A program made the position numbers and the translations under genes. 64,000 nt of DNA. Source: Peribolospora baueri (taxonomy: Eukaryota). This document shows, in pieces, positions 2,831 to 46,878 of this stretch. Where the stretch lies: the NCBI GenBank assembly GCA_029717555.1, contig JAMDHS010000047.1, positions 1 to 64,000 on the forward strand, read 5' to 3'. Numbering within the stretch: the stretch's first letter is position 1; every line of letters begins with the position of its first letter. Under the pieces are notes generated by a model. The model made no database searches. It had not been told where the DNA came from and saw nothing but the letters and a program-made list of their open reading frames with translations.

Positions 2831-3310
2831 GAGTGTGTGGGCGACTCTGGTCGGGTCGGGTCCTGCTCCACCGGAGAATATACCTATCTGATCTGGTTCT
2901 ACGACTTTGGTCGGGTCTCGTTACGTTCCTTCGCTTTCCGCCCCAACCCGTGAGCCGGTTGTGACAGGACTGCTGCGGCATGCGAGATCGATCTTCGATC
3001 TCAAGCCCGTCCGCCCGTTCAGGCCCGCCTACATCCGTCCGTGTTGGGCGGTGCTGCGCCACCGTGCGAGCGGCGGAGGTCCCGAGCTCTTGACGACGCC
3101 GTGGCCAGACCGAGACTGTTATAACTACCACCATTACTCGCCCACCCAGACCGAGACGGCATCCTAATTTTCTATACCAGCCTTCCAAAGTCCAACGTAG
3201 ATTCGCGTGATCGAATTCTTGTTAGCTGTGGAGCTCCACCGTCGTCCTGACCAACACATACTACTCCTGCTCCTTCACCCACCCACCCACCGGCCGATTG
3301 ACCGCCAAAG

Positions 3311-4584
3311 ATGTCTTTCTTCAAGCGCAAGGAAAAGGTCGAGATCCCCCCCGTGGCGTCTGAGTCTGCCATGCGCAACGAGCTTCTAGGTGGCCCAGGA
3401 GCAGCCGGCGCAAGACCCGGTCGCGGGCCACCCGCTGGAGCTCCGCCTGGGCGTCAAGGCGGTTACGGTGGTGCCTATGGAGCCGGTGGTGGTGGCTACG
3501 GTGGTGGTGGTGGCTACGGCGGTGGTGGTGGCTACGGCGGTGGTGGACCTCCCCCGTACGGTGACGGCGGGGCATATGGCCCGAATCCGCAGCGCAACGA
3601 GCTGTTTGCCGGCGCGAAGCCCCCTCGAGAGGGCTTCGGGTCTCAATTCGATCACACCTACGGCTCCGGGGCGAGGGGTGGTGCCCCGGAGGAGGACGAG
3701 TACGCTGAGTATGATGGCGGTCGCTCGGCTGGCGGCGGCGGTGGAGGCTACGGGGACGAGCAGGCGCAAGACGAGGACGACGAGGTGGAGGCTATCAAGC
3801 AGCAGATGAGGTTCACCAAGCAAGAGAGCTTGAGTTCCACTCGTAATGCCTTGCGCGTAGCCAGGGAGGCGGAGGAGACGGCCAGCAACACCCTGTTGAA
3901 ACTCGGCCACCAGAGCGGTGGGTAGAGCTGCATCTTGTCCAAGTCTCACTCCGAGCCGTGATTCTAATTATCTCATCATCTCATTTCCGTTTTCTTTTCC
4001 CATCACATTTAGAACGCATTGCCAACACGGAGCGTAACTTGGACTTGGCCAAGGCACACGGCGCGCGAGCGGAGGACAACGCGAAGGAGATCGTCGCCCT
4101 GAACCGGTCCATCTTCCGTCCTTCGGTCACGTGGAACAAGCAGGCTAAACGAGATGCTGAGGAGGCGCGGATCGTGGCTCGGCACCTTGAAGAGCGCGAG
4201 GAGAGGGAGCAGGCTCGGAAGCAGGTCATGGAGTCCAAGACACGCGTCGACCGCGCCATGGGCGGACCTGGCTCCGGCGGCGACCGGTTCGGCGGTTCCG
4301 GTCGCTTCGGTTCCTCCTCCTCCAGCAAAGACAAGACGAACAAGCTGGCCCAGAGGAGCAGGTACCAATTCGAGGCGACAGCCAGCGACGACGAGCTTGA
4401 GGACGAGCTGGACGGCAACCTGGACGAGATGTCTTCCCTCTCCAAGCGCCTCCATAATTTGGGCTCGGCGATGGGTCAGGAGATCGACGCGCAGAACGTT
4501 AGGTTGGGGAGGGTCTCGGATAAGGTGGACGCGGCGGATCTAAGGATCGGCTCGCAGACGAGGGCGTTGGAGAGGATCAAGTAG
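3311..4584 (+). CDS. SEC9: SNAP-25-like Qbc t-SNARE Sec9
   Basis: RNELF repeats, Gly/Tyr-rich N-terminus, first SNARE motif (IKQQMRFTKQESLSSTRNALR) and second SNARE motif (LDGNLDEMSSLSKRLHNLGSAMGQEIDAQN). One intron at ~3920-4011. Confidence 0.92.
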
Positions 4585-5513
4585 AGGAGCTGTCGTGCTT
4601 CCGCTCGTCACTGGCCGAGCCCGTTCCCTCCTCGTCCATCTCCGCGCTTCCGTCTCTCGCCTCCATCTCTCTTGCCTCCACCTCTCTCTCTCTTTTCGGA
4701 CATCTTCTCCCGGTTCCGTCTCGCTCTTTCCCTCCCAGTACAACTTGGGCGTCTTTCTCGTCTCCCACACCCCAATACTCGTCCATCTTGCCTCACATCC
4801 TTGCCGTTCGTAGACCGCCAGCCACTCGCGATCGAGTGGGTTTCTCGTCGGAACTTTAAAAACTGCTTCCGATTTATGAACGCAGTCCCGTTTGACGAAA
4901 ACGGTTCCGAGCCGCTGCTATCTTTCGGGGTGGGCGAAGGGCGTGGGGCGAGTTAGAAGAGTGGTATCATCATACACATATAAGTCTCGAAACGAAGCGC
5001 GTCGATCAGGGACGACGTCGAGCCCGCGCCCGGCCTATATTCGCTCGAGAGCGACGGCATCGCGCATTCCTGTGGGTGGGTGGCGCTGCCGTGCACGTCA
5101 AGTCGATCGTCGTGGAGCGACAGCGCAGCCGGACGGGTCGGGCCTCGGCTTGCTCGGGTCCTTTGTGACCTTCATCTAATGGACCGGGAAGTGGGTGACA
5201 CGAGACGGGCCGACAGGACACGACGCGACACGAGGTGGCGCCGCCGATCGTGGTGGTCCGTGCACAGCACAGCGGTCTGCGGGCCCGTCTTGCCTGTATC
5301 AGCGAGGATGCAAGACAGGGCGGGGTGTTCATCAGAGACGTCCGACGGGGATATCGTGGTCAGTTTCAATATGAAGGAGGAGGACGAAAGGGTGTGAGAG
5401 AGAGTGTGTATGGAATGGATGGCCGGCGGTGAAGGTGGTGGGACGTTGACGTGGCGTGGCGAGGCATGATGTGGGCAGGCAGTGGAGAGCTAGGGAAAGG
5501 GAGGTGGACAACC

Positions 5514-5545
5514 ATGCCATGCCATGCCATGCCATGCCATGCCAT
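5514..5545. repeat. (GCCAT)n pentanucleotide microsatellite
   Basis: About six tandem GCCAT units read directly. Confidence 0.9.
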
Positions 5546-7573
5546 ATCCTTTCCCACCCGGCGCTCTCTCCACGTAATCACAGCGCCTGGCACGTAAACC
5601 GAGGTCGGCGGTCAGCCTTTTGCATATCGGTGGCAGATGTGCAGCAACTAGATTTCTAGAAAGTGTGTGCTGTGCCGCTCTCGAGGTGTGCGCCCGGCAT
5701 CGGACCGTCCGCGCGGACCATGCGCGGTGGAATCGGGTCGGTTGTTTGCAGGATCGGGCTACGTCGGCGCTTGCGATTGCAAGATCGATCGCGTTCCCAC
5801 GCCGTTCCAGCCCGAGCCGAAGCCGCTCCCACCCACGCCGACAAGGACAAGGGGCGTCCCTCGGCGCGCGTCTGCTCCATTCCCATGCGTCTCGACCCCT
5901 GTCCTTCCTTCCACCGCAGCACCGAGCAGGGCGGCAGGTCTAGTACGAGTACGAGTACCTCACCGGCGGATCCATCAATCGGGCCGCCTCTCTTTCACCG
6001 CCTCTTCGCCGCGCTCGTGGTGCTGCGGCAATGCCAACCTTGGTGTCGTCGACGTGCTTCGACGCGCAGGCATGAGCGATGCCGGCGAGAAAGATCCGTT
6101 TTGTCCTTGTCAAACACGGCCGGCGGTTGACAGAAGCTCTCCCTTCTCCTTTCCGCCCCCTATGTTCATGACCAAGCGTGGAGGCGTACTCCGTTGCTCC
6201 TTCCCACCCTTCCGCTCCCCGAAGCGAGCTTCGCGTAGCAAACACGACTAGACCGCCAGCTCTTCACCCGCCACTAGGCCAGGGCGCGACACCGGGCCCG
6301 GGCAACCAGCGGTCGTCTCCCTCGACTTACTGCACACCGTACATCTGCGTACGCAAGGAGTGGCTTGCCCAGCACTACTGCTCTCCTTCTCGACTCCGAG
6401 GCGACCGACTGCTTCCTCCCTCCCTCGACGCCCTCGTCGTTCTCCGGACCTCATCGCGTCTCTCCCCCGCTGATCCGCCAATCTACTCCCTCCTCGCCGC
6501 AACGCCCACTTCGCACACCGACCTTGGAATGCGGCACTGTACCACCAGCGCTATCACCGTCCAGATGCCCATTCCCACCCCCCTCCCCCGATCCAACTAA
6601 ATACATCGGCACCGCGAGCCCGTACCAACGGAAAGTTCTCCTCACTCCGCCGACGTTCGCTGAGCCCGCCGGCCCGCTTCCAACCAGCCTGGCCCAGCTC
6701 GGCGTCTTGCTATGTTCCTTCTCCTGCTTCGTCGCCCTCCTTGTCTTCATTCCCGCGTCCGCCGAGGTGGCTCGATGTCTTACTCACACACCGACGTCGG
6801 TTCCTCGACGGCTGCGCGTCGAAGCACTCCGTCTACTCCTTGTTTTGGCCGAACCTCCCGTCCATCCACAGGACCAAGCCCGACTGTCGCGCTTCATCGA
6901 TGACGACAAAAGAAAAAGCGAAAGCGTGCCCTCCGAGCCCCTCCGGGCCTTTCCGGCTTTGCCTTGTCCCGAACAGACGGACGGGCGGGCCAACCAACGC
7001 ACGGACGGCGGATCAGCGCATTTAAAATGTCTCATTCCTTTGTATTAGACCGCCAGCTCCGCCCGTCATCGATACGATCGTCTTGTTTGCAAGTCACCTT
7101 CTTTCTCCCCATCCATCCATCAGGGTCCCCCTCCTTCCCCAACCCTCATTTTTCGCCTTTCCCATGTCCACCTCATCGAAGGATAAGAAGGGCCAAAAGA
7201 ACGTCAAACCGTGAACCCGCCCCCTCATCTCATCGAGCCTCATCTTCCCTCGTCCTCCTTCCATCCACCCCCACCTCTTCTCCATCAGACATTCCTTCCT
7301 CGAGACCTACCAGGCCCACCCTCAGTTTTCCTACATCGCATCCATCTACAAAACTTCTCTTTCCTCTCCGAACGAGACAGAGACAACATCTCCAAACTGG
7401 CGCCCTTGCGTGCCCGTCGCCCCCAGCCCCCTCTCCCTTCCCCCCACCCCATTCACCACCTACCTTCTGTACGGTTCTGCCGTCGTGGTCGCAGACGCGC
7501 GCTCTCTTCTCCTCCCGACCTCGAACCAAGCGGTCCATTCGAGCTTGTCCCCATCGATTGCAGCAAACTCCGA

Positions 7574-7933
7574 ATGACTAAGTATTACGCTGGTTAGTTG
7601 GGGTTTTTTCTTCTCTCTCCCGCCCGCGTCAGCCCTTGCCTTCCCTCCTGACTCCTCCAGCACTCTTTTCTTTCCCATCCGCCGTCGTTTCTCTAGTCGC
7701 CGTAGGCCGCGAGACTGGCGTGTTTACCAGCCAGTTCGAATTTAAGACTTCCACCTGGAACTAGTGAGCCACCTCGGTCGCCTTTATAGAACCGTGTCTC
7801 TGATGCCGGACAAGGTGAATACGTCTTAACAGCGATCTCCCATTTTTCCTCCGACAGCCCCGGCGCGCTCTATCGCATCTTCTCCAACGCCGAGGACGCT
7901 TGGCTGTGGTACACGGATAACGTGACGTGTTGA
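7574..7933 (+). CDS. Putative microprotein made only of an RNase H1 N-terminal hybrid-binding (Cauli_VI/viroplasmin) domain
   Basis: Exons 7574-7592, 7697-7763 and 7858-7933 (donors GTTAGT and GTGAGC, acceptors TAG and CAG, CTTAAC branch point in intron 2) give MTKYYAVAVGRETGVFTSQFEFKTSTWNYPGALYRIFSNAEDAWLWYTDNVTC*. This matches the YAVxxGRxxGVF...YPGAxY..F...EDAW pattern. Confidence 0.72.
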
Positions 7934-9134
7934 TGAACAAATCTGTCTCGATGAATGCGAGCGCCGAAGGACAACGGACGTAGGACGGACGCGCTCAGCC
8001 TCTCTCTATCCGTCCTTTCACCTTGCCACATCGGTTCGACTTCGGCGCCAATCGTCCCCAGCTACGCACGCGCCTTGTTCGATGCACGCCCGCAGCGCTC
8101 GCAAAGGCCCCTCCCTTCCTCTCTCCAAGGCTCCCTCTTTTCTTTCCGAGGGCGACCCGAACTTCTGATCTCAATCTCGGCCACCTACCCGCATATTTGT
8201 CCTTAGGACCTCCCAACGGAAACACCAACTCCGCCCGTGTACACCTCTCTCCGACCCGTTCAGAACGTCGAGCAACACCACCAACAACAACAACCGCCCC
8301 AGCAGAATTGAAAATGTTTTTCTTACACGCTCTAGCATGTACGACAGCTAGCGGCCACCTTTCTCTCTCTTCTTTCGCACGTTTTCTCCGTATCGGCTCC
8401 GTCTCGCCACGAGTTTTCCTCTTCTAGTGGGCCCCCAGTGTGGGTCTGACATCTGTCGCACACCCAACCCGTCTTGTGTTGTGTCGTCCGCGTCTCCATG
8501 CCGTCGGGATGCCGAGTTTCTACGCATCTCCGTCTCTCCTTACTTTATTTTCTCTTCCGTTCTTGTATTTGTCCTTTACCGTGCCCCCTCCCTTCCCCAC
8601 CAAAAACATCCCGTCTCGGCAGTCGTGAGCCCTTCTATACCTTACAGATAGGGTAGACTTGTTCATCCGCACCTCTCCTCCCCACACTGAATGAAACGAT
8701 TGCACACGTTCTCCTGAACTCGAGTCTGTCTTCCGACCCATACAGACTGCACTACGAGCAAGTAGACAGATGGTTTAGCCCATTCTTGCTCTGTTTCCCG
8801 ACGTCCTACCCTTCCTCTCGGGCTGGGCAGTAATAGCTGACGTAATGCTCCCGTGTGATCGAACGCGGATAGCCGCAGCGAGCGAGCGATCGGCCTCCGT
8901 CGTTATCAGCCTCCCCGCCCGCGCCCAAAGCGAAAGCGTCACGGACGACCCGACGGCTTTGCCCCCCATCCCCCATCCCACACCCCGGCGAAAGCGCGAG
9001 CTCCCTTGAAACCCCACCTTCCCCCAGTCTCCTTTTGTCCATCTGAATAGGATCCCCTCTTCTTAACCTTTGCTTTTTTTAGTTCTCTCCCCTTGGAGCT
9101 TTGTACTTGACCCCGCCCTCCGGTCCGGATCACT

Positions 9135-11061
9135 ATGACGGTAAGAAAGGCTACACACGCCGGTAGCTGGTACACTTCTAACTGTGAGTTTGTCTTTTGC
9201 GGCCCGGGTCTGCTGGGACCCCTTCCGTCCTAGGAAAGGGTTGAAATTGCTATTGTGTCCCTTTTATTTGGGCGCATGGAGGAAGTTCCGTTAGTGTAGA
9301 ACCGAAAGTGTCCTGGACACTCAACGCCTCTTCGCCGTTTTCACTGCCACCGCTTACGCACCTACCTCAGCGGGCAGGCTCGACAAGGAGCTAGACTCGT
9401 ACCTCTCCGCCGTCGATCCCAAACTCGTTCCCGCTCGCTTTGATGGCGTCGAACCTAACTGGCCCTCTCCCTCTCCCGCTGGCGGCGGCGCTTCGGAGAG
9501 CGTGGGCGGGACGGCCAGCAGGGGCCGGATGGTCATGCCCGTCAAGGGTTGTAGGGCCATCATTGCGCCGTGAGTTTGAGCCCTTCCTTCTCAGAAAAAC
9601 AAGGAGCCGGTGGAGAGGCTCTGCATGGTGGCGAACACCCCCGGCCTCCCTCCGAGCCTTATCCGCCCTTTGACAACTCGGAATTGCCGTTTGGCCCACT
9701 TTCGCGCACTTAACGTTCCCCCGTTTCCCGCTCTGCTCCTATCCTATCCCCCAAACGAATCGACTCGACTCGACTCACAGGCACGCGGGATACTCTTACT
9801 CCGGTCCTGCAGCCGCTTGGGCGTATAAGTGCATTGACGTGACGGCGATGTGAGTTGACGAGCCTACCCTCACGATCTCTGGCGAGGCTCGGTTCCTCAC
9901 GTCCCCTTCTCCACACAGCAAGAGAGTCTTTATCCTAGGGCCTTCTCATCACTTCTACCTCGACGGGTGTGCTCTCTCCCGGTGCGAGCAATATGACACG
10001 CCTCTCGGAAAGCTGGAGCTCGATCAAGAGAGTGAGTGCGATAGGTAGGGGAATGGTTGTTCGGTCGACAAGAGCCGAATTGAAATTTCTCACACCTTTG
10101 CTTCCTCTCCTCGGAACGTTCGCCGTATCAGCGATAGCCAAACTGCGCTCTACGGGCAAGTTTACCGAGATGACGCTCGATGTTGACGAGGACGAGCACA
10201 GTATCGAGATGCACCTCCCTTACGTGCGAAAGGTTTTCGAGAAGTGAGTCACTCCTCCAAGGCTAGGCAGAGATTTGCTTGCTATCTCGTCGTCCGCTTC
10301 GCTGCGACCGACAGTCCATCTGTTTGAATTTACTCTCTTCCTCTCTCCCAGGCGAGACATCAAAATCGTGCCCATCCTTGTCGGCGCCATCTCCTCGTCA
10401 AGCGAGCTCAAGTTTGGAAAACTCCTCGCCCCTTATCTCGATGATCCCGCCAACCTTTTCGTCATCTCGAGCGACTTTTGTCATTGGTGAGCTCGAAACG
10501 AACGGTGAGGTTTGGGTGCCGAGGCGGTGATTTATCGATGACTTGGCCATTTTTATGGCATGCTGTCCCTTTCGCTTTCGCCTTTCTAGGGGCCTGCGTT
10601 TCAATTACACCTACTACACTCCATCCCCAACCGGCCATCCCGCCCACCTCACCCGCTCCTCCCTCCCCTCCTCTCTCTCCCCAGACTTCCCCATCCACGC
10701 CTCCATTACCACCCTCGACCATGCCGCCATGGACGCCATCTCTATTCCTGCCCCCTCTCCCCTCACGCCCACGACCAACAAGTCGGCCCGACAGGCGCAC
10801 GATGAGTTCTCGGCTTGCATCAAGCGCACCCGCAACACCGTCTGCGGGCGGCACCCCATCGGTGTGCTACTGGGCGCGTTGGTCGCGCTGGAGGAGGCGG
10901 ACGAGAAGAAGAAGACGGGCGCGGGCGCAGCGGAGGGAAGAGGAAGAGGAGCACCGAAGAGGGCGACGGAGGTGCGATTCGTGCGGTACGAGCAGAGCAG
11001 TCAGTGCGTCGAGGTGGCGGATAGCAGCGTCAGCTACGCGAGCGCGTTCATCAAGTGGTGA
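9135..11061 (+). CDS. MEMO1: MEMO1/UPF0103 family protein
   Basis: Multi-exon: [78 protein letters not shown]. Confidence 0.92.
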
Positions 11062-11914
11062 TCTGGTGCGCTTTCCCACCATCGCTGGGAAAGCGATGTT
11101 AGTCCCGTCAGCGATCCTCGTCCGTCGACCTTGATCTGCCAGAGTTTCTAGGGTTTTTCCAATGCATACTCAATACATGCTCAACGTCATCGTAACGAAG
11201 GCCCAATCTTCCCTCAGCCCCCATAATTGGTTTTACATTCGCGAGCAGCCCGTCTGCCCACCCCGCAGAAGCTAGTCAAGGCAGTCGGCCCTTCTTGCGA
11301 GCCAGATCAGGCAGACTCGCATCGGTCGAAAACACCTGATGCCGCTCTACGTCTGTCGCGCACTCTTCTTCGTAAACCTCCCGAGAAAATCGACGACACC
11401 TTTTTCCCCACCCTCCGCTCGAATGTCTCGTTCGTGCGTTGGCACCCTTTTTCTACGGCGACATGGGCGGAGCGGGCGCCGGCAAGCTGTTGGTGCTAGA
11501 GGACGAGAGGGACCACTGCGGAACCACGAGAGGAGGACTCGAATCGAATCCTTATCAGATGCTCCCATGCGTCGGTTGGGAGCGCAGTCCCATAAGTTTT
11601 CACCATGGCTACGAGAGGCCGGGCCGTCTTCCTCGATTTAAACATCCCGTTCTCTGACGCAATAGAACGGGATGACAGCACAGTCAGCAACTGTCCATTC
11701 TACAGAACGGCGCGGTTCGAGCCGGTTCGGGAATAGAGTCTTAGTTGGCGTATAGGAGCGTACAAGTACAATCTACGGCTGAAATAGCGGAAGCCTGCCT
11801 CTTCCCCTCGTCGCGGAAGTCAACGGCCTCGTCGAGTAGCGAGAAAGATGCTGAAGTGTCCCCTTCCTCCCATATCATCTCGGGGCATTGAATGGAGGCC
11901 TTTCCCATGGCCTT

Positions 11915-13338: not shown

Positions 13339-16300
13339 ATGCTACGTTCGTGGTCTTTCGGGGGATTTTCCAAGCCAGCCGCGCTTCGCAGAAGGGCCTT
13401 AGGCATATCTCCATGGCTGCACCAGCGGGGTATATTGTCTACCCCCTCACATGTGAGCTGAAGGGACTGGCTAGATGGTGCACGCTTTGCCGATTGATAC
13501 TACCTTAAAATTTGTCTTTTCTTTTATTTGCGTGTACGCCATCAGGGGAGGCTACCTGAACGCTACTTTAAGGTGCACCCTGAGGTTGCAGACGCACTGG
13601 AGAGAGGGGAAGGCGTCGTGGCTCTTGAGAGCACGATCATCTCTCATGGTAAGATCATCCTTTTTTCCTCTCCCCGCACGTATAGCTACCGAGCGCATGA
13701 TCGACGGACGCATTCGACGCTTTATTCTCCAGGCATGCCTTATCCTACCAACTTGTCCACCGCTCTGTCACTGGAGCGGATTGTACGGGATCAAGGCGCC
13801 GTCCCAGCGACGATCGGCATCGTCTCTGGCAAGGTCCACGTCGGCTTGGAGTACACTCAGCTCGAGCGTCTCGCCGAGGCCGCGTTGCCGGAGAAGAAGG
13901 CCGAGTGCGTCAAAGTATCTCGGAGGGACCTAGCCAGCACTCTGGCCCAGGGTCTTGACGGAGGTACCACCGTAAGTGGAACGATGGTGGTGGCCCACAT
14001 GGCTGGCATCCAAGTTTTCGCTACCGGTGGGATCGGGGGCGTGCATCGGGGTGGAGAGAAATGTGAGTTCTACCCATGGGCCCTTCATGTCAAGCTTTGT
14101 CTCTCTAACACATGTGCTATCTTATGCAGCCCTTGACATCTCCGCCGACCTCTTAGAGCTCTGCCGTACGCCCGTCGCCGTCATCTCGTCCGGATGCAAG
14201 TCCATCCTTGACATTCCCCGCACGCTCGAGTATCTCGAGACTATGGGCGTCATCGTCGGGTCCTATAAGAGTGATTACTTTCCGGCATTCTACTCCCCGA
14301 GTAGCGGCTTGAAGGCGCCATTTCGGGTCGATTCGCCAAAGCACATTGCAGAAGTTATATGTGAGTCTGACGAGCATGTCGCTGGTGCCCTTTAAAGCTC
14401 GAGCGCATCCTAAATATCGCGCACTTCGATTTGCAGACGCCAGTCGCGCGATGGAGCTGTCCTCTGGCGCTATTTTCGGCGTGCCTATCCCCACGTCTTT
14501 TAGCCAAGCAGGGCTTGAGATTGAGGCGGCCGTCGAGCAAGCGGTGCAAGAGAGCGAAGAGAACGGGGTCGCTCGACGCGGTAAGGAAGTGACGCCATGG
14601 CTGCTGAAGCGAGTGGGAGAGCTCACAAATGGGAAGGCGTTGGAAAGCAGTGAGCGTCGATGCCTTTCTCGAGCGGCTGGAAACAAAATGTTCCCCAACG
14701 GATCGAGCTTACAGGACCGTGCTGGTATTGCCCATAATGCGCAAACAGACGTTGCGCTCGTGCAGAATAACGCTAAAGTCGGCGGGCAAGTGGCCGTGGA
14801 GCTGGCAAGATTGGTGGCGGCGGGTTACCAAACGAATTCTCGTCCAAAGGTGAGTTTCCTAGATGGATCTTGGAAGTGCGCTTATCGTGCCAAACATAGA
14901 CTGATGGGCATGCAGTCATGGTTTCAAGGCGTGAGCCTCCCAGACGACACTTCCCCAGTACCATCCGTCGTTTCGGTCCAGAGCAAAGAGAGTGATTCCA
15001 GTCAACAGGCTCCCGAAGGCCAGGTGAGGAAGGCCAAGCGGCTACGACTCCCAAATCGGAGGGATGCTGATGTTTCCTGACATCCCTTATCAGGCTTCAT
15101 TGCAAGAACCAGTGCTGATTGTTGTTGGATCCGCGGCAATAGACGTCACCGCAATTCCTTCTTCTCCAGGTTCCGCTATTTCTCGTACGACCGTTCCTGG
15201 GCGCGTCTCCTTGTCCCTTGGCGGTGTAGGCCGCAACGTAGCTGAGGCTGCACATCGCATCTCTACCGCTCTCTCGGATGGGATATCGCCTCTTTTGATC
15301 TCGCCCGTCGGTAGAGAAAAGGGTAAAGACTCTCAGACCGACATGCTCGGCCGCGTCCTCCAAGAAGGTCTACGAGCGGTCGGCATGCGCGAGGACGGTC
15401 TCGTTCCGGTATCGAGCCACAGCGACGGTGAAATGGCAAGAACACCGGTATGCAATCTCTGGCTTGATGGGCGTAGGGATCTCAGTGGCGGGGTTGCGGA
15501 AATGAATATCGTCGAAAGAATGTCGTCAACAGAGGTGAGCAGGAGAGGGTCTTTGCGGGTATTGTGCTATCCCATGAGCATTGTGCCTGACCCTTCACTC
15601 CACGCAGGTGCGGTCGGTTCTGCGACACCATAGCCCTGAAGTCATCACGTTTGATGGCAATCTCAATTCCGATGTCATGACCACGCTGATGGAGTTCGGG
15701 CTGCAGAAAAATGCGCGGAGTAAGTGCCTTGCTTAGTCCTACGCTCCTTTCCGGCCAGCGATTTGTCCGCAGGTCTCTGAAAGCACCGTACTTGAAACCC
15801 TCGTGCTGTAGCTTTCTTTGAGCCCACGTCCGCATCCAAGGCATTGCGCATCTTGAGCGCTCTGAAAACACTTCTCGACCGGGATACAACGATTAGTAGC
15901 ATTGACCGACCTCTGCTTTCGTTCGCCTCGCCCAACGCCCTCGAGCTGATACGTTTATGGAACGAGGCGCGCTCTCTCTCGCTCGACCTGTTTTCCCATC
16001 CCACATGGTGGCCCTCCATCGACTTGCTGGGCCTTGGCCCTGGTTTTCGGACAGACCTCGACCAACTCGTGATGGGGAGGCACGTTGCTTCAAGCCAGAA
16101 ACAGGAGAGAGAGCTCAGTTTACTGACCAAGGACGGACTCGTGCAAGCCTCCGTCCAACTTTTGCCTTTCATCGGTACTCTCTTCGTCAAATGCGGAAGC
16201 AAGGGCGTCCTCCTCGTCTCTCGTCAGCCCATGTCCGACGCCCTTCGAGGCGCGCGGACGGACATCGCAAAGGGCCAAGTGATAGCACACGCTCTCGACG

Positions 16301-16581
16301 GCCAATCCGTCCTCGTCGTCAAACACTACCAGGTCATCGCGCCGCCCCTCGAAGCGGAAGAGATGCTCAGTTCTACGGGTGCAGGAGACAGCTTCGTCGG
16401 AACAGTCTCGGCGGCGCTCGCGGACGCCAGGCTGATCGGCATGAGCAAGGGGCAGGATCCGATGGCGTCCATCTTGGGCATGGACAGTTTGATGGGGCTC
16501 GGTCAGCGAGCGGCCAAGATGGCATTGCTGACAGAGAGTGCCGTCCATCCTAACTTGAACACGATCGTGGAGGTCAGTTGA
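13339..16581 (+). CDS. Bifunctional pseudouridine-5'-phosphate glycosidase (PsuG/IndA) plus PfkB-family pseudouridine kinase
   Basis: VVALESTIISHGMPYP, GGTTVSGTM, FATGGIGGVHRG, DISADL, KSILDI, GKEVTPWLL; then PfkB motifs GGVGRNVAEA and STGAGDSFVG. About 8 introns; start codon inferred. Confidence 0.9.
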
Positions 16582-43250: not shown

Positions 43251-44313
43251 GGCGGTTCTTCCAGCAGAGGTGCTCGCTACGTGTTGGTCTGCGTCGAGTC
43301 GTTCCAAAGGCGGCCGCCCATATCTATTCGACGTCGCATCTCTCGTTGACCTGCCATCTATCCAAACACCGCACCCCGTGCCGCAGCAGCCTCTCACTCT
43401 CCCTGGCGCGTCGAGCCGCGTCGCCAGCGCCTCATCAGCTGATAACCCTACAGTCGGACCTCGTTGCTCGCCGCAGCCAACCCACTTCGTCCATAATAGA
43501 ACAGGCCGGCGCACTAGGACACAAACTCCTCTTCCTGATAAACCAAGGGACGTATTCAGGTGGTCACCACTGAGAATAAAAATATGGCAGGCGAGGATCC
43601 ATGGCGAGACCATGTCTTTCGCTCGATCACAACCACTTACATCTGCGGCCATAGGACCATGAAAGCACTGCATCCCGTCCGATCTGCAAAGTTAAGCATG
43701 GTACCGTTGAGTCAGTACTGCGGTGGGGGACCACGCGGGAATCCTCAATGCTGCAGTTTCTTATTTCTTTTTTTATCCTTTTTACTTGGCTCATTCATCT
43801 ACCAGTAACAGGAGGAGCCACAGGGAAACGGACCAGGAACATGCAAGCGCGGTGCCAGTCTCGTCTGTGGGGCTGCTGAGAATCTACGGGGGCATAGATA
43901 GCACTTGGAACACCGAACTAGACATCGTACAACACGGTGAGGTGAACGACGACACGCCGGCATGGAAGGCGGGCGATCGAGATCTTGCTGACATGTCGTT
44001 GACCTCGCGTGAGCATGACGGTGACGGCAACATCGGGAAATTCGCTCATTCCCTCTCCCAGCCCCTACGGCAAGCTGTAGATTGGCGGCGGGGTAAGTAC
44101 AGACGGAGGGAACCATAAAACGGGCGGGCGCACAGAAGGGAAGGGGTATACCAAAAACAGGCGGAAAAAAAGCGAACCGGAGACGTCGTCCTTCGTCCGC
44201 AGAGCGTCGATCGAATTGGGCATGAAAGGGGTAGATAAGGAGAAGAAAAAAAAAAGAAAAAAAAAAAAAAGAAAAAACCTTGGATGGTAGTGCACGGAAG
44301 ACGACCGTGAAGC

Positions 44314-46781: not shown

Positions 46782-46878
46782 CGACGCCTGCAGGATTCGA
46801 ACCTGCGCCCACATAGTGGACGACCTCGCAACTTTGCAGTATAGCAGGGCCGCGCGTTAACCACTCCGCCAAAGCGTC
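46782..46878 (-). tRNA. tRNA-Ser(GCT) with 15-nt intron
   Basis: Acceptor stem GACGCTT/AGGCGTC, D-arm TGGCGGAGTGGTTAACGC, anticodon stem CGGCC/GGTCG with loop CT-GCT-A^A, intron TACTGCAAAGTTGCG, long variable arm, GGTTCGAATCC, and a downstream T6 Pol III terminator. Confidence 0.95.

Follow-up and report, generated by a model that had tools for sequence, protein, structure and literature searches.

A candidate three-exon fungal gene whose 53-residue product would be a divergent, free-standing RNase H1-type hybrid-binding domain

Can a fungal gene consist of nothing but the hybrid-binding domain (HBD) of RNase H1, and if it can, would such a domain still read RNA:DNA hybrids? The question is raised by positions 7574 to 7933 of a 64,000-nucleotide stretch of a Peribolospora baueri contig (JAMDHS010000047.1), a stretch that we refer to as the window. 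A first-pass annotation of the window, made from its letters alone, proposed that three short exons join there into a microprotein made only of the Cauli_VI/RNase H1 N-terminal domain, and it suggested three roles for it: a reader of R-loops or double-stranded RNA, a competitor of RNase H1, or a domain repurposed for another ligand. The window is fungal by its gene content, which includes Fungal_trans, Whi5, Memo, an m-AAA protease, citrate synthase, and others.

Judging from the comparisons presented here, we put at about one half the probability that this locus is a small three-exon fungal gene, expressed, and with a divergent free-standing HBD (Cauli_VI, PF01693) as its whole 53-aa product. 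Its transcript would be spliced and translated into a domain that stands by itself.

The gene model and the spliced domain

The proposed gene has the following parts, given with their positions in the window:

7574..7592, + strand: exon 1, the ATG and the first six and one-third codons
7593..7696, + strand: intron 1, 104 nt, GTTAGT...CTCTAG, 77% pyrimidine
7697..7763, + strand: exon 2, which encodes beta strand 2 (G-R-E-T-G-V-F) and helix 1 in its divergent form
7764..7857, + strand: intron 2, 94 nt, GTGAGC...CGACAG
7858..7933, + strand: exon 3, the Y-P-G-A-L-Y-R-I-F strand, the last helix (A-E-D-A-W), six residues, and the TGA (7931-7933)

The three short exons, the canonical splice signals, the junction phases of 1 and 2, and the closing TGA are all present as the first-pass annotation had described them. 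Exon 1 ends at the donor CTG/GTTAGT and exon 2 at CTA/GTGAGC (the slash marks the junction), and the 3′ ends of the two introns read ..TCTCTAG and ..CCGACAG. Branch-like motifs precede both acceptors, CTGAC at 7648, 45 nt upstream, in intron 1, and TTAAC, 28 nt upstream, in intron 2. The joined coding sequence is 162 nt long, 53 aa plus the TGA, and a further in-frame TGA follows right after it at 7934-7936. The first strand of the domain, the K-Y-Y-A-V of exon 1, begins two residues after the Met, and seven codons lead from the last aligned domain position to the stop. Because it lacks an ATG and is closed upstream by a stop just before 7582, the exon-2 frame can be read only after a splice.

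How does this model compare with the other ways of splicing the same region? We enumerated all GT..AG intron pairs, with introns of 40-250 nt each, that fall between 7450 and 8100 and leave the junction region open, and scored them with a profile of bacterial domains. The model of the first-pass annotation is at the top of the 7,955 open GT-AG two-intron models, with 34.1 bits. The second-best model, at 26.3 bits, has three of the four splice sites in common with it and a different second donor. In the m-AAA protease gene of the window, comparison with 76 homologous bacterial FtsH fragments defines two introns, 73 and 88 nt long, with donors GTGAGC and GTGAGT and CAG acceptors. The GTGAGC donor is common to intron 2 and one of these, and in such features the proposed introns resemble genuine introns of the same genome.

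The composition of the joined exons can also be evaluated. The coding sequence has a GC3 of 0.74, next to 0.43 for GC1 and 0.48 for GC2, and in the coding stretches of four other window genes GC3 is 0.63-0.80. The codon-position GC bias is coding-like. The pyrimidine share is ~50% in the exons, 60-77% in intron 1 and the flanks, and 56% in intron 2. A scan of GC periodicity over 3000-11400 cannot tell coding from non-coding DNA here, because MEMO1 itself comes out nearly flat.

Is the spliced peptide a Cauli_VI domain? We gathered prokaryote genomes by way of a bacterial-like FtsH exon of the window and searched them with PF01693, which scored over the Pfam cut-off of 21 bits in 2 of 5 genomes and then in 20 of 151, for a total of 21 distinct loci (L081-L101). 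A local profile built solely from these 21 bacterial domains, each of them over the PF01693 cut-off, matches the spliced peptide with 34.7 bits (E 2.5e-9, Z=3702) at positions 1-42 of 44, which is essentially the whole length of the domain. On the same profile, the best of 2000 shuffles of the peptide reaches 11.4 bits. The best of the 1701 window ORFs of at least 20 aa is the exon-3 frame with 8.1 bits, and the exon-2 frame alone has 5.2 bits. By this measure the match exceeds chance, and the assignment of a Cauli_VI/RNase H1 N-terminal domain to the joined exons stands. The domain is visible only in spliced form. Pfam searches with four single-exon pieces, at E-values up to 10, gave a PF01693 match for none of the four, and a PDB search with single exons gave no HBD match.

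A near-identical profile (A1), which in addition holds two exon translations as fragment rows, finds yeast 1QHK with 72.7 bits and human 3BSU with 71.9 bits, so the profile is valid for eukaryotes. The spliced peptide is at about half the canonical HBD score (34.7 vs. ~72 bits). In a BLASTP comparison with 120 small PF01693 proteins, which are the top-scoring ones among the matches listed and are biased toward canonical sequences, the 10 best matches are 42-51% identical to the peptide, with E-values down to 3e-13.

One could object that the resemblance arose by chance, or that the DNA encodes a different fold altogether, the exon-3 frame being read on through intron 2 (7790-7930) as FG-GAP-type repeats. 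A phmmer comparison of this 47-aa frame with P0122, a bacterial FG-GAP/Kelch-type secreted protein, has an E-value of 2.3e-5 across four repeat units, and the frame has a sub-threshold Pfam match to DUF1935 (E 0.0055). But the P0122 score sums the repeats of one short motif, single units scoring 17-28 bits in what is a two-sequence comparison, and the Pfam FG-GAP models do not match the exon-3 frame at E-values up to 10. Moreover, FG-GAP repeats would account for neither exons 1 and 2 nor the splice signals, whereas splicing adds ~26 bits to the HBD reading and makes it the best of all the models enumerated. We rejected the P0122 likeness of 7790-7930 (+) as a chance motif that repeats amplify, and we consider this objection so improbable as to carry almost no weight.

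The ends of the gene and its neighbourhood

Does the domain stand alone, or is it the visible part of something longer? Unlike RNase H1, the fungal peptide has no linker and no catalytic domain. No PF00075 catalytic domain was found downstream of the HBD. Pfam reports neither RNase_H nor Cauli_VI in the 128 window ORFs of at least 155 aa, and no family, at E-values up to 1, in the 29 flanking ORFs on both strands of 5652-9291 (a DUF5848 match of 13.8 bits we take to be noise). Nor does any family reach its cut-off in 44 further ORFs, 42 of them in 4584-7584 and two that are frames of the upstream gene. We also used a local RNase H profile made from the C-terminal RNase H portions of the proteins at the 21 bacterial loci; with this profile, which is bacterial and comes without a eukaryotic positive control, no window ORF scores above the shuffled controls. 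With both Pfam on the flanking ORFs and the RNase H profile silent, we agree with the first-pass annotation that no RNase H catalytic domain lies ahead of MEMO1. The MEMO1 frame has what we take to be its own Met, directly before the conserved N-terminal motif at ~9135, and for this reason it needs no upstream exon.

The N-terminal end is also compatible with a complete domain. Those of the 21 bacterial homologues that have a Met nearby carry it a few residues ahead of the domain, and the HBDs of human (3BSU) and yeast (1QHK) RNase H1, which belong to the same family and have ~44 residues, are at the N-terminus after the Met. A Met two residues before K-Y-Y-A-V matches the placement in the bacterial homologues and in the two solved eukaryotic domains. 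The ATG at 7574, with a C at position -3, is the only in-frame ATG after a stop at 7184. An ATG-free leader of 409 nt is not significant (P=0.11). A short ATG-to-TGA ORF of 16 codons occupies 7164-7214 (+). It lies 360 nt ahead of the HBD start, with no other ATG until 7574. It could act as an upstream ORF, if the leader reaches that far.

The same upstream region had been pointed out as an open frame that might make the exons part of a much larger protein. The frame is indeed open back to 7187, with the stop at 7184, but it has no ATG. A larger gene could also arise in other ways. An upstream exon could be spliced into the frame before 7574, for which there is an acceptor-like TTGCAG upstream of the ATG, with its last base at 7562, or a weak donor just ahead of the stop, AAC/GTGACG at 7921, could lead to further exons. 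In either case the HBD would form a single module within a longer protein, perhaps one of low complexity. The openness of the exon-1 frame back to 7187 and the ~3 kb upstream (4585-7573) with no assigned gene leave room for such an arrangement. Other observations argue against it. From 7187 up to the ATG at 7574 the frame has no other ATG, and in the pyrimidine-rich DNA around the upstream frame, where stop codons are rare, composition alone holds frames open. The flanking ORFs have no Pfam family, the Met-x-K-Y-Y-A-V start has the N-terminal placement just described, and two in-frame TGA codons follow the domain. Joining MEMO1 would take an intron of >1.2 kb, compared with the introns of 73-104 nt found here, and a set of 5.8 billion clustered proteins contains no protein of >105 aa with exon 2. 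All considered, a larger gene seems to us improbable, and we go on with the small gene as the preferred reading.

Around the locus, 4585-9130 provides ~4 kb in which there is no other recognisable gene. The ~3 kb between the stop of the upstream gene (4582-4584) and the HBD ATG (4585-7573) have no Pfam-recognisable coding on either strand, the only hint of any being a sub-threshold match to the APH phosphotransferase family in a frame at 4984-5394 (+) (18.2 bits vs. a cut-off of 23.2); within them, a perfect (CCATG) tandem repeat of 6.8 copies occupies 5512-5545, and the + strand is pyrimidine-rich from ~6400 onward. We found no meaningful direct, inverted, or tandem repeats flanking the locus and no transposon structure, no Rfam family or tRNA in 4500-9300, and no viral features around the locus.

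The upstream neighbour at 3302-4584 (+) is rich in Gly and Tyr in its N-terminal region and has two heptad-like stretches toward its C-terminus. To us it looks like a t-SNARE of the Sec9/SNAP-25 type, which is an assumption of ours; Pfam gives no supporting match for a t-SNARE at E-values up to 0.1. Farther along the window, Rfam identifies a dispersed 5S rRNA gene at 43641-43759 (+) with 109.8 bits, and a tRNA of 97 nt at 46782-46878 (-) with 46.1 bits, which ARAGORN misses and which may have an intron. At 13498-16578 (+), matches to Indigoidine_A-like (pseudouridine-5′-phosphate glycosidase type) and PfkB kinase families in consecutive frames suggest one fused or adjacent pseudouridine-metabolism gene.

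Helix 1, the binding surface, and the question of decay

What has become of the residues with which an HBD holds a hybrid? In the human HBD, Trp43, Lys59, and Lys60 form the binding surface, heteroduplex binding is ablated by W43A or by deletion of F58-K60, and K59A and K60A lower the affinity ~10-fold, according to the passages on binding in PMC6846478. In the sensor experiments described in PMC10639055, both W43A and KK59/60AA abolish the R-loop localisation of an HBD sensor. Counted along the 3BSU chain, human W43, K59, and K60 are profile positions 17, 33, and 34. The residues of the fungal peptide at these positions are Gln, Arg, and Ile, so that none of the three binding-surface residues is found here; tool alignments and counting along 3BSU give the same substitutions that the first-pass annotation had read off a manual alignment.

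These substitutions do not have the same weight. The Trp that is replaced by Gln is present in 21 of 21 bacterial loci, in all of the 120 top-scoring small proteins among the matches listed, and in both the yeast and the human domain. The peptide also has a Phe where Cys is invariant (141 of 141 comparison domains), and an Asn at a Gly that is kept in 18 of 21 loci and 120 of 120 small proteins and is Arg in human. At the K59 position, Arg stands in place of a Lys found in 20 of 21 loci and 119 of 120 small proteins. At the K60 position the peptide has Ile. Human has Lys there, and S or G is found in each of the 120 small proteins and in 20 of the 21 bacterial loci. The change of KK to RI is real, but it weighs less than had been implied, with the Arg conservative and the second Lys usually an S or G. 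Neither the W nor the C reappears when exon 2 is read, by eye, in its two alternative frames.

The residues that are kept (in profile numbering) are K1, Y2, Y3, A4, and V5; G8, R9, T11, G12, V13, and F14; Y27, P28, G29, A30, Y32, and F35; and A41. The changes concentrate in helix 1, and fold-defining positions elsewhere are retained. With the core residues kept and the Trp and Cys of helix 1 lost, we expect a fold that is retained and a canonical RNA:DNA-hybrid binding that is weakened or lost. The fold would be kept through the strand and core residues Y-A-V, G-R..G-V-F, and Y-P-G-A-x-Y..F and the helix-2 Ala, and the helix 1 without its invariant Trp and Cys would be where hybrid binding fails. 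The loss of the Trp argues against canonical hybrid binding, and the changes from K to R and from K to I do so much less. Given a real and expressed protein, we think it unlikely that canonical hybrid binding is retained.

The same changes can be looked at in a different way. The exons could be a relic, what is left of a captured copy or of the N-terminal exons of a gene that carried an HBD, RNase H1-like or not. Such a relic would still be open but unexpressed or unselected. A decaying copy would be expected to lose the invariant W and C and to have the G and K altered, and a profile score half that of canonical domains points in the same direction, as does a location within ~4 kb that hold no other recognisable gene. 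The searches for relatives also fit this picture, for they returned no orthologue from either proteins or metagenomes. The exon-2 frame, compared with the 5.8 billion clustered proteins, has no candidate of near length, and none of 64 longer candidates matches at E-values up to 10. The exon-3 frame has no orthologue among 1.84 billion representatives, and its two matches there are both unrelated bacterial repeat proteins. In JGI metagenome contigs, 597 pattern matches include no relative, and a degenerate pattern of 8 residues has nine exact matches, all in an unrelated context and with at most 4.7 bits on the HBD profile. A mechanism for moving such a copy exists as well, since Helitrons can move PF01693 genes in a basidiomycete (PMC4289320, main text).

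Against decay, all six signals (the start, the stop, two donors, and two acceptors) are intact, and so is the ORF. The changes gather in helix 1 and are not found at the fold-defining positions elsewhere, GC3 is coding-like, and the locus has no terminal repeats or other transposon structure. We regard a relic as the main rival, to be kept in mind although doubtful, and the locus is probably a genuine small gene of an ordinary sort, distinguished by the unusual binding surface of its product.

What would the protein do? Of the three roles proposed in the first-pass annotation, reading R-loops or competing with RNase H1 is the least likely, because W43A ablates heteroduplex binding. As far as the residues can tell, either a repurposed domain or a relic has better odds. 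An expressed protein would act through its changed surface on another ligand or on a protein partner, and not as a reader of R-loops or a competitor of RNase H1. Taken one step further, a microprotein with the HBD fold and a swapped nucleic-acid-contacting helix could be an adaptor that binds proteins or an alternative ligand and does not read hybrids at all; it would, for example, be a regulator that docks on the machinery of R-loops or double-stranded RNA. We offer this as a speculative idea with long odds.

Known free-standing domains and the meaning of the locus

How unusual is an HBD without an enzyme? The fungal peptide and the HBD of RNase H1 have in common the Y-A-V, the G-R-x-x-G-[IV]-[FY], the G-A-x-[YF]-x-x-F, and the helix-2 Ala. 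The solved constructs 3BSU and 1QHK, of 47 and 53 residues, indicate that the HBD alone is a stable unit, with a sheet of three strands and two helices as its fold. Small proteins with the domain are numerous, with 552 PF01693 proteins of 11-91 aa at E-values up to 0.001 among 604 candidates. Most of these 552 are on short metagenome contigs, many of them of ~1 kb or less, and probably represent pieces of complete RNase H genes. Others are on long bacterial contigs, where domain-only proteins of 54-79 aa are found, one of them (P0074) under the name 'viroplasmin family protein'. The bacterial proteins P0074, of 67 aa, and P0050 and P0051, both of 54 aa, are free-standing PF01693 domains of a size similar to that of the fungal peptide. 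In contrast to it, the bacterial domain-only proteins are prokaryotic and intronless, and among the 120 top-scoring ones of the matches listed, the W, C, and G are present in 120 of 120 and the K in 119 of 120.

Non-catalytic Cauli_VI proteins do occur in basidiomycetes, as the first-pass annotation had claimed. A search of the literature for PF01693/Cauli_VI in fungi, at the level of main texts, found two cases only, in Trametes and in Pleurotus. A 'Cauli_VI domain-containing protein' of Trametes versicolor, of roughly 15 kDa, is cited from UniProt in the main text of PMC10541659, and the Pleurotus capE is described as a PF01693 gene captured by a Helitron in that of PMC4289320. As far as these descriptions go, and the comparison is with the descriptions only, both have the domain without RNase H, as our peptide does, but they are larger or fused. 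The domain is found in a non-RNase protein of viruses too. The caulimovirus P6/TAV, after which the Pfam family is named, includes a PF01693 domain of roughly 48 residues that has been modelled on 3BSU (PMC7102451). In contrast to the 53-aa fungal peptide, P6/TAV is a viral protein of large size and several functions. Proteins made only of an HBD are already annotated, and what is new here is an unusually divergent member, not a new kind.

A relic would be of interest for annotation alone. If it is the small gene that we favour, it would be a further intron-split microprotein that ORF-based annotation of fungi misses. Isolated human HBDs serve as probes for R-loops, for example in the RHINO sensor as presented in PMC10639055. 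A natural HBD with a rewritten helix would, if true, show which residues carry the specificity for hybrids and what other uses the fold can have. And if the adaptor idea holds, the peptide would be an example from nature of an HBD that has become an adaptor and does not bind hybrids.
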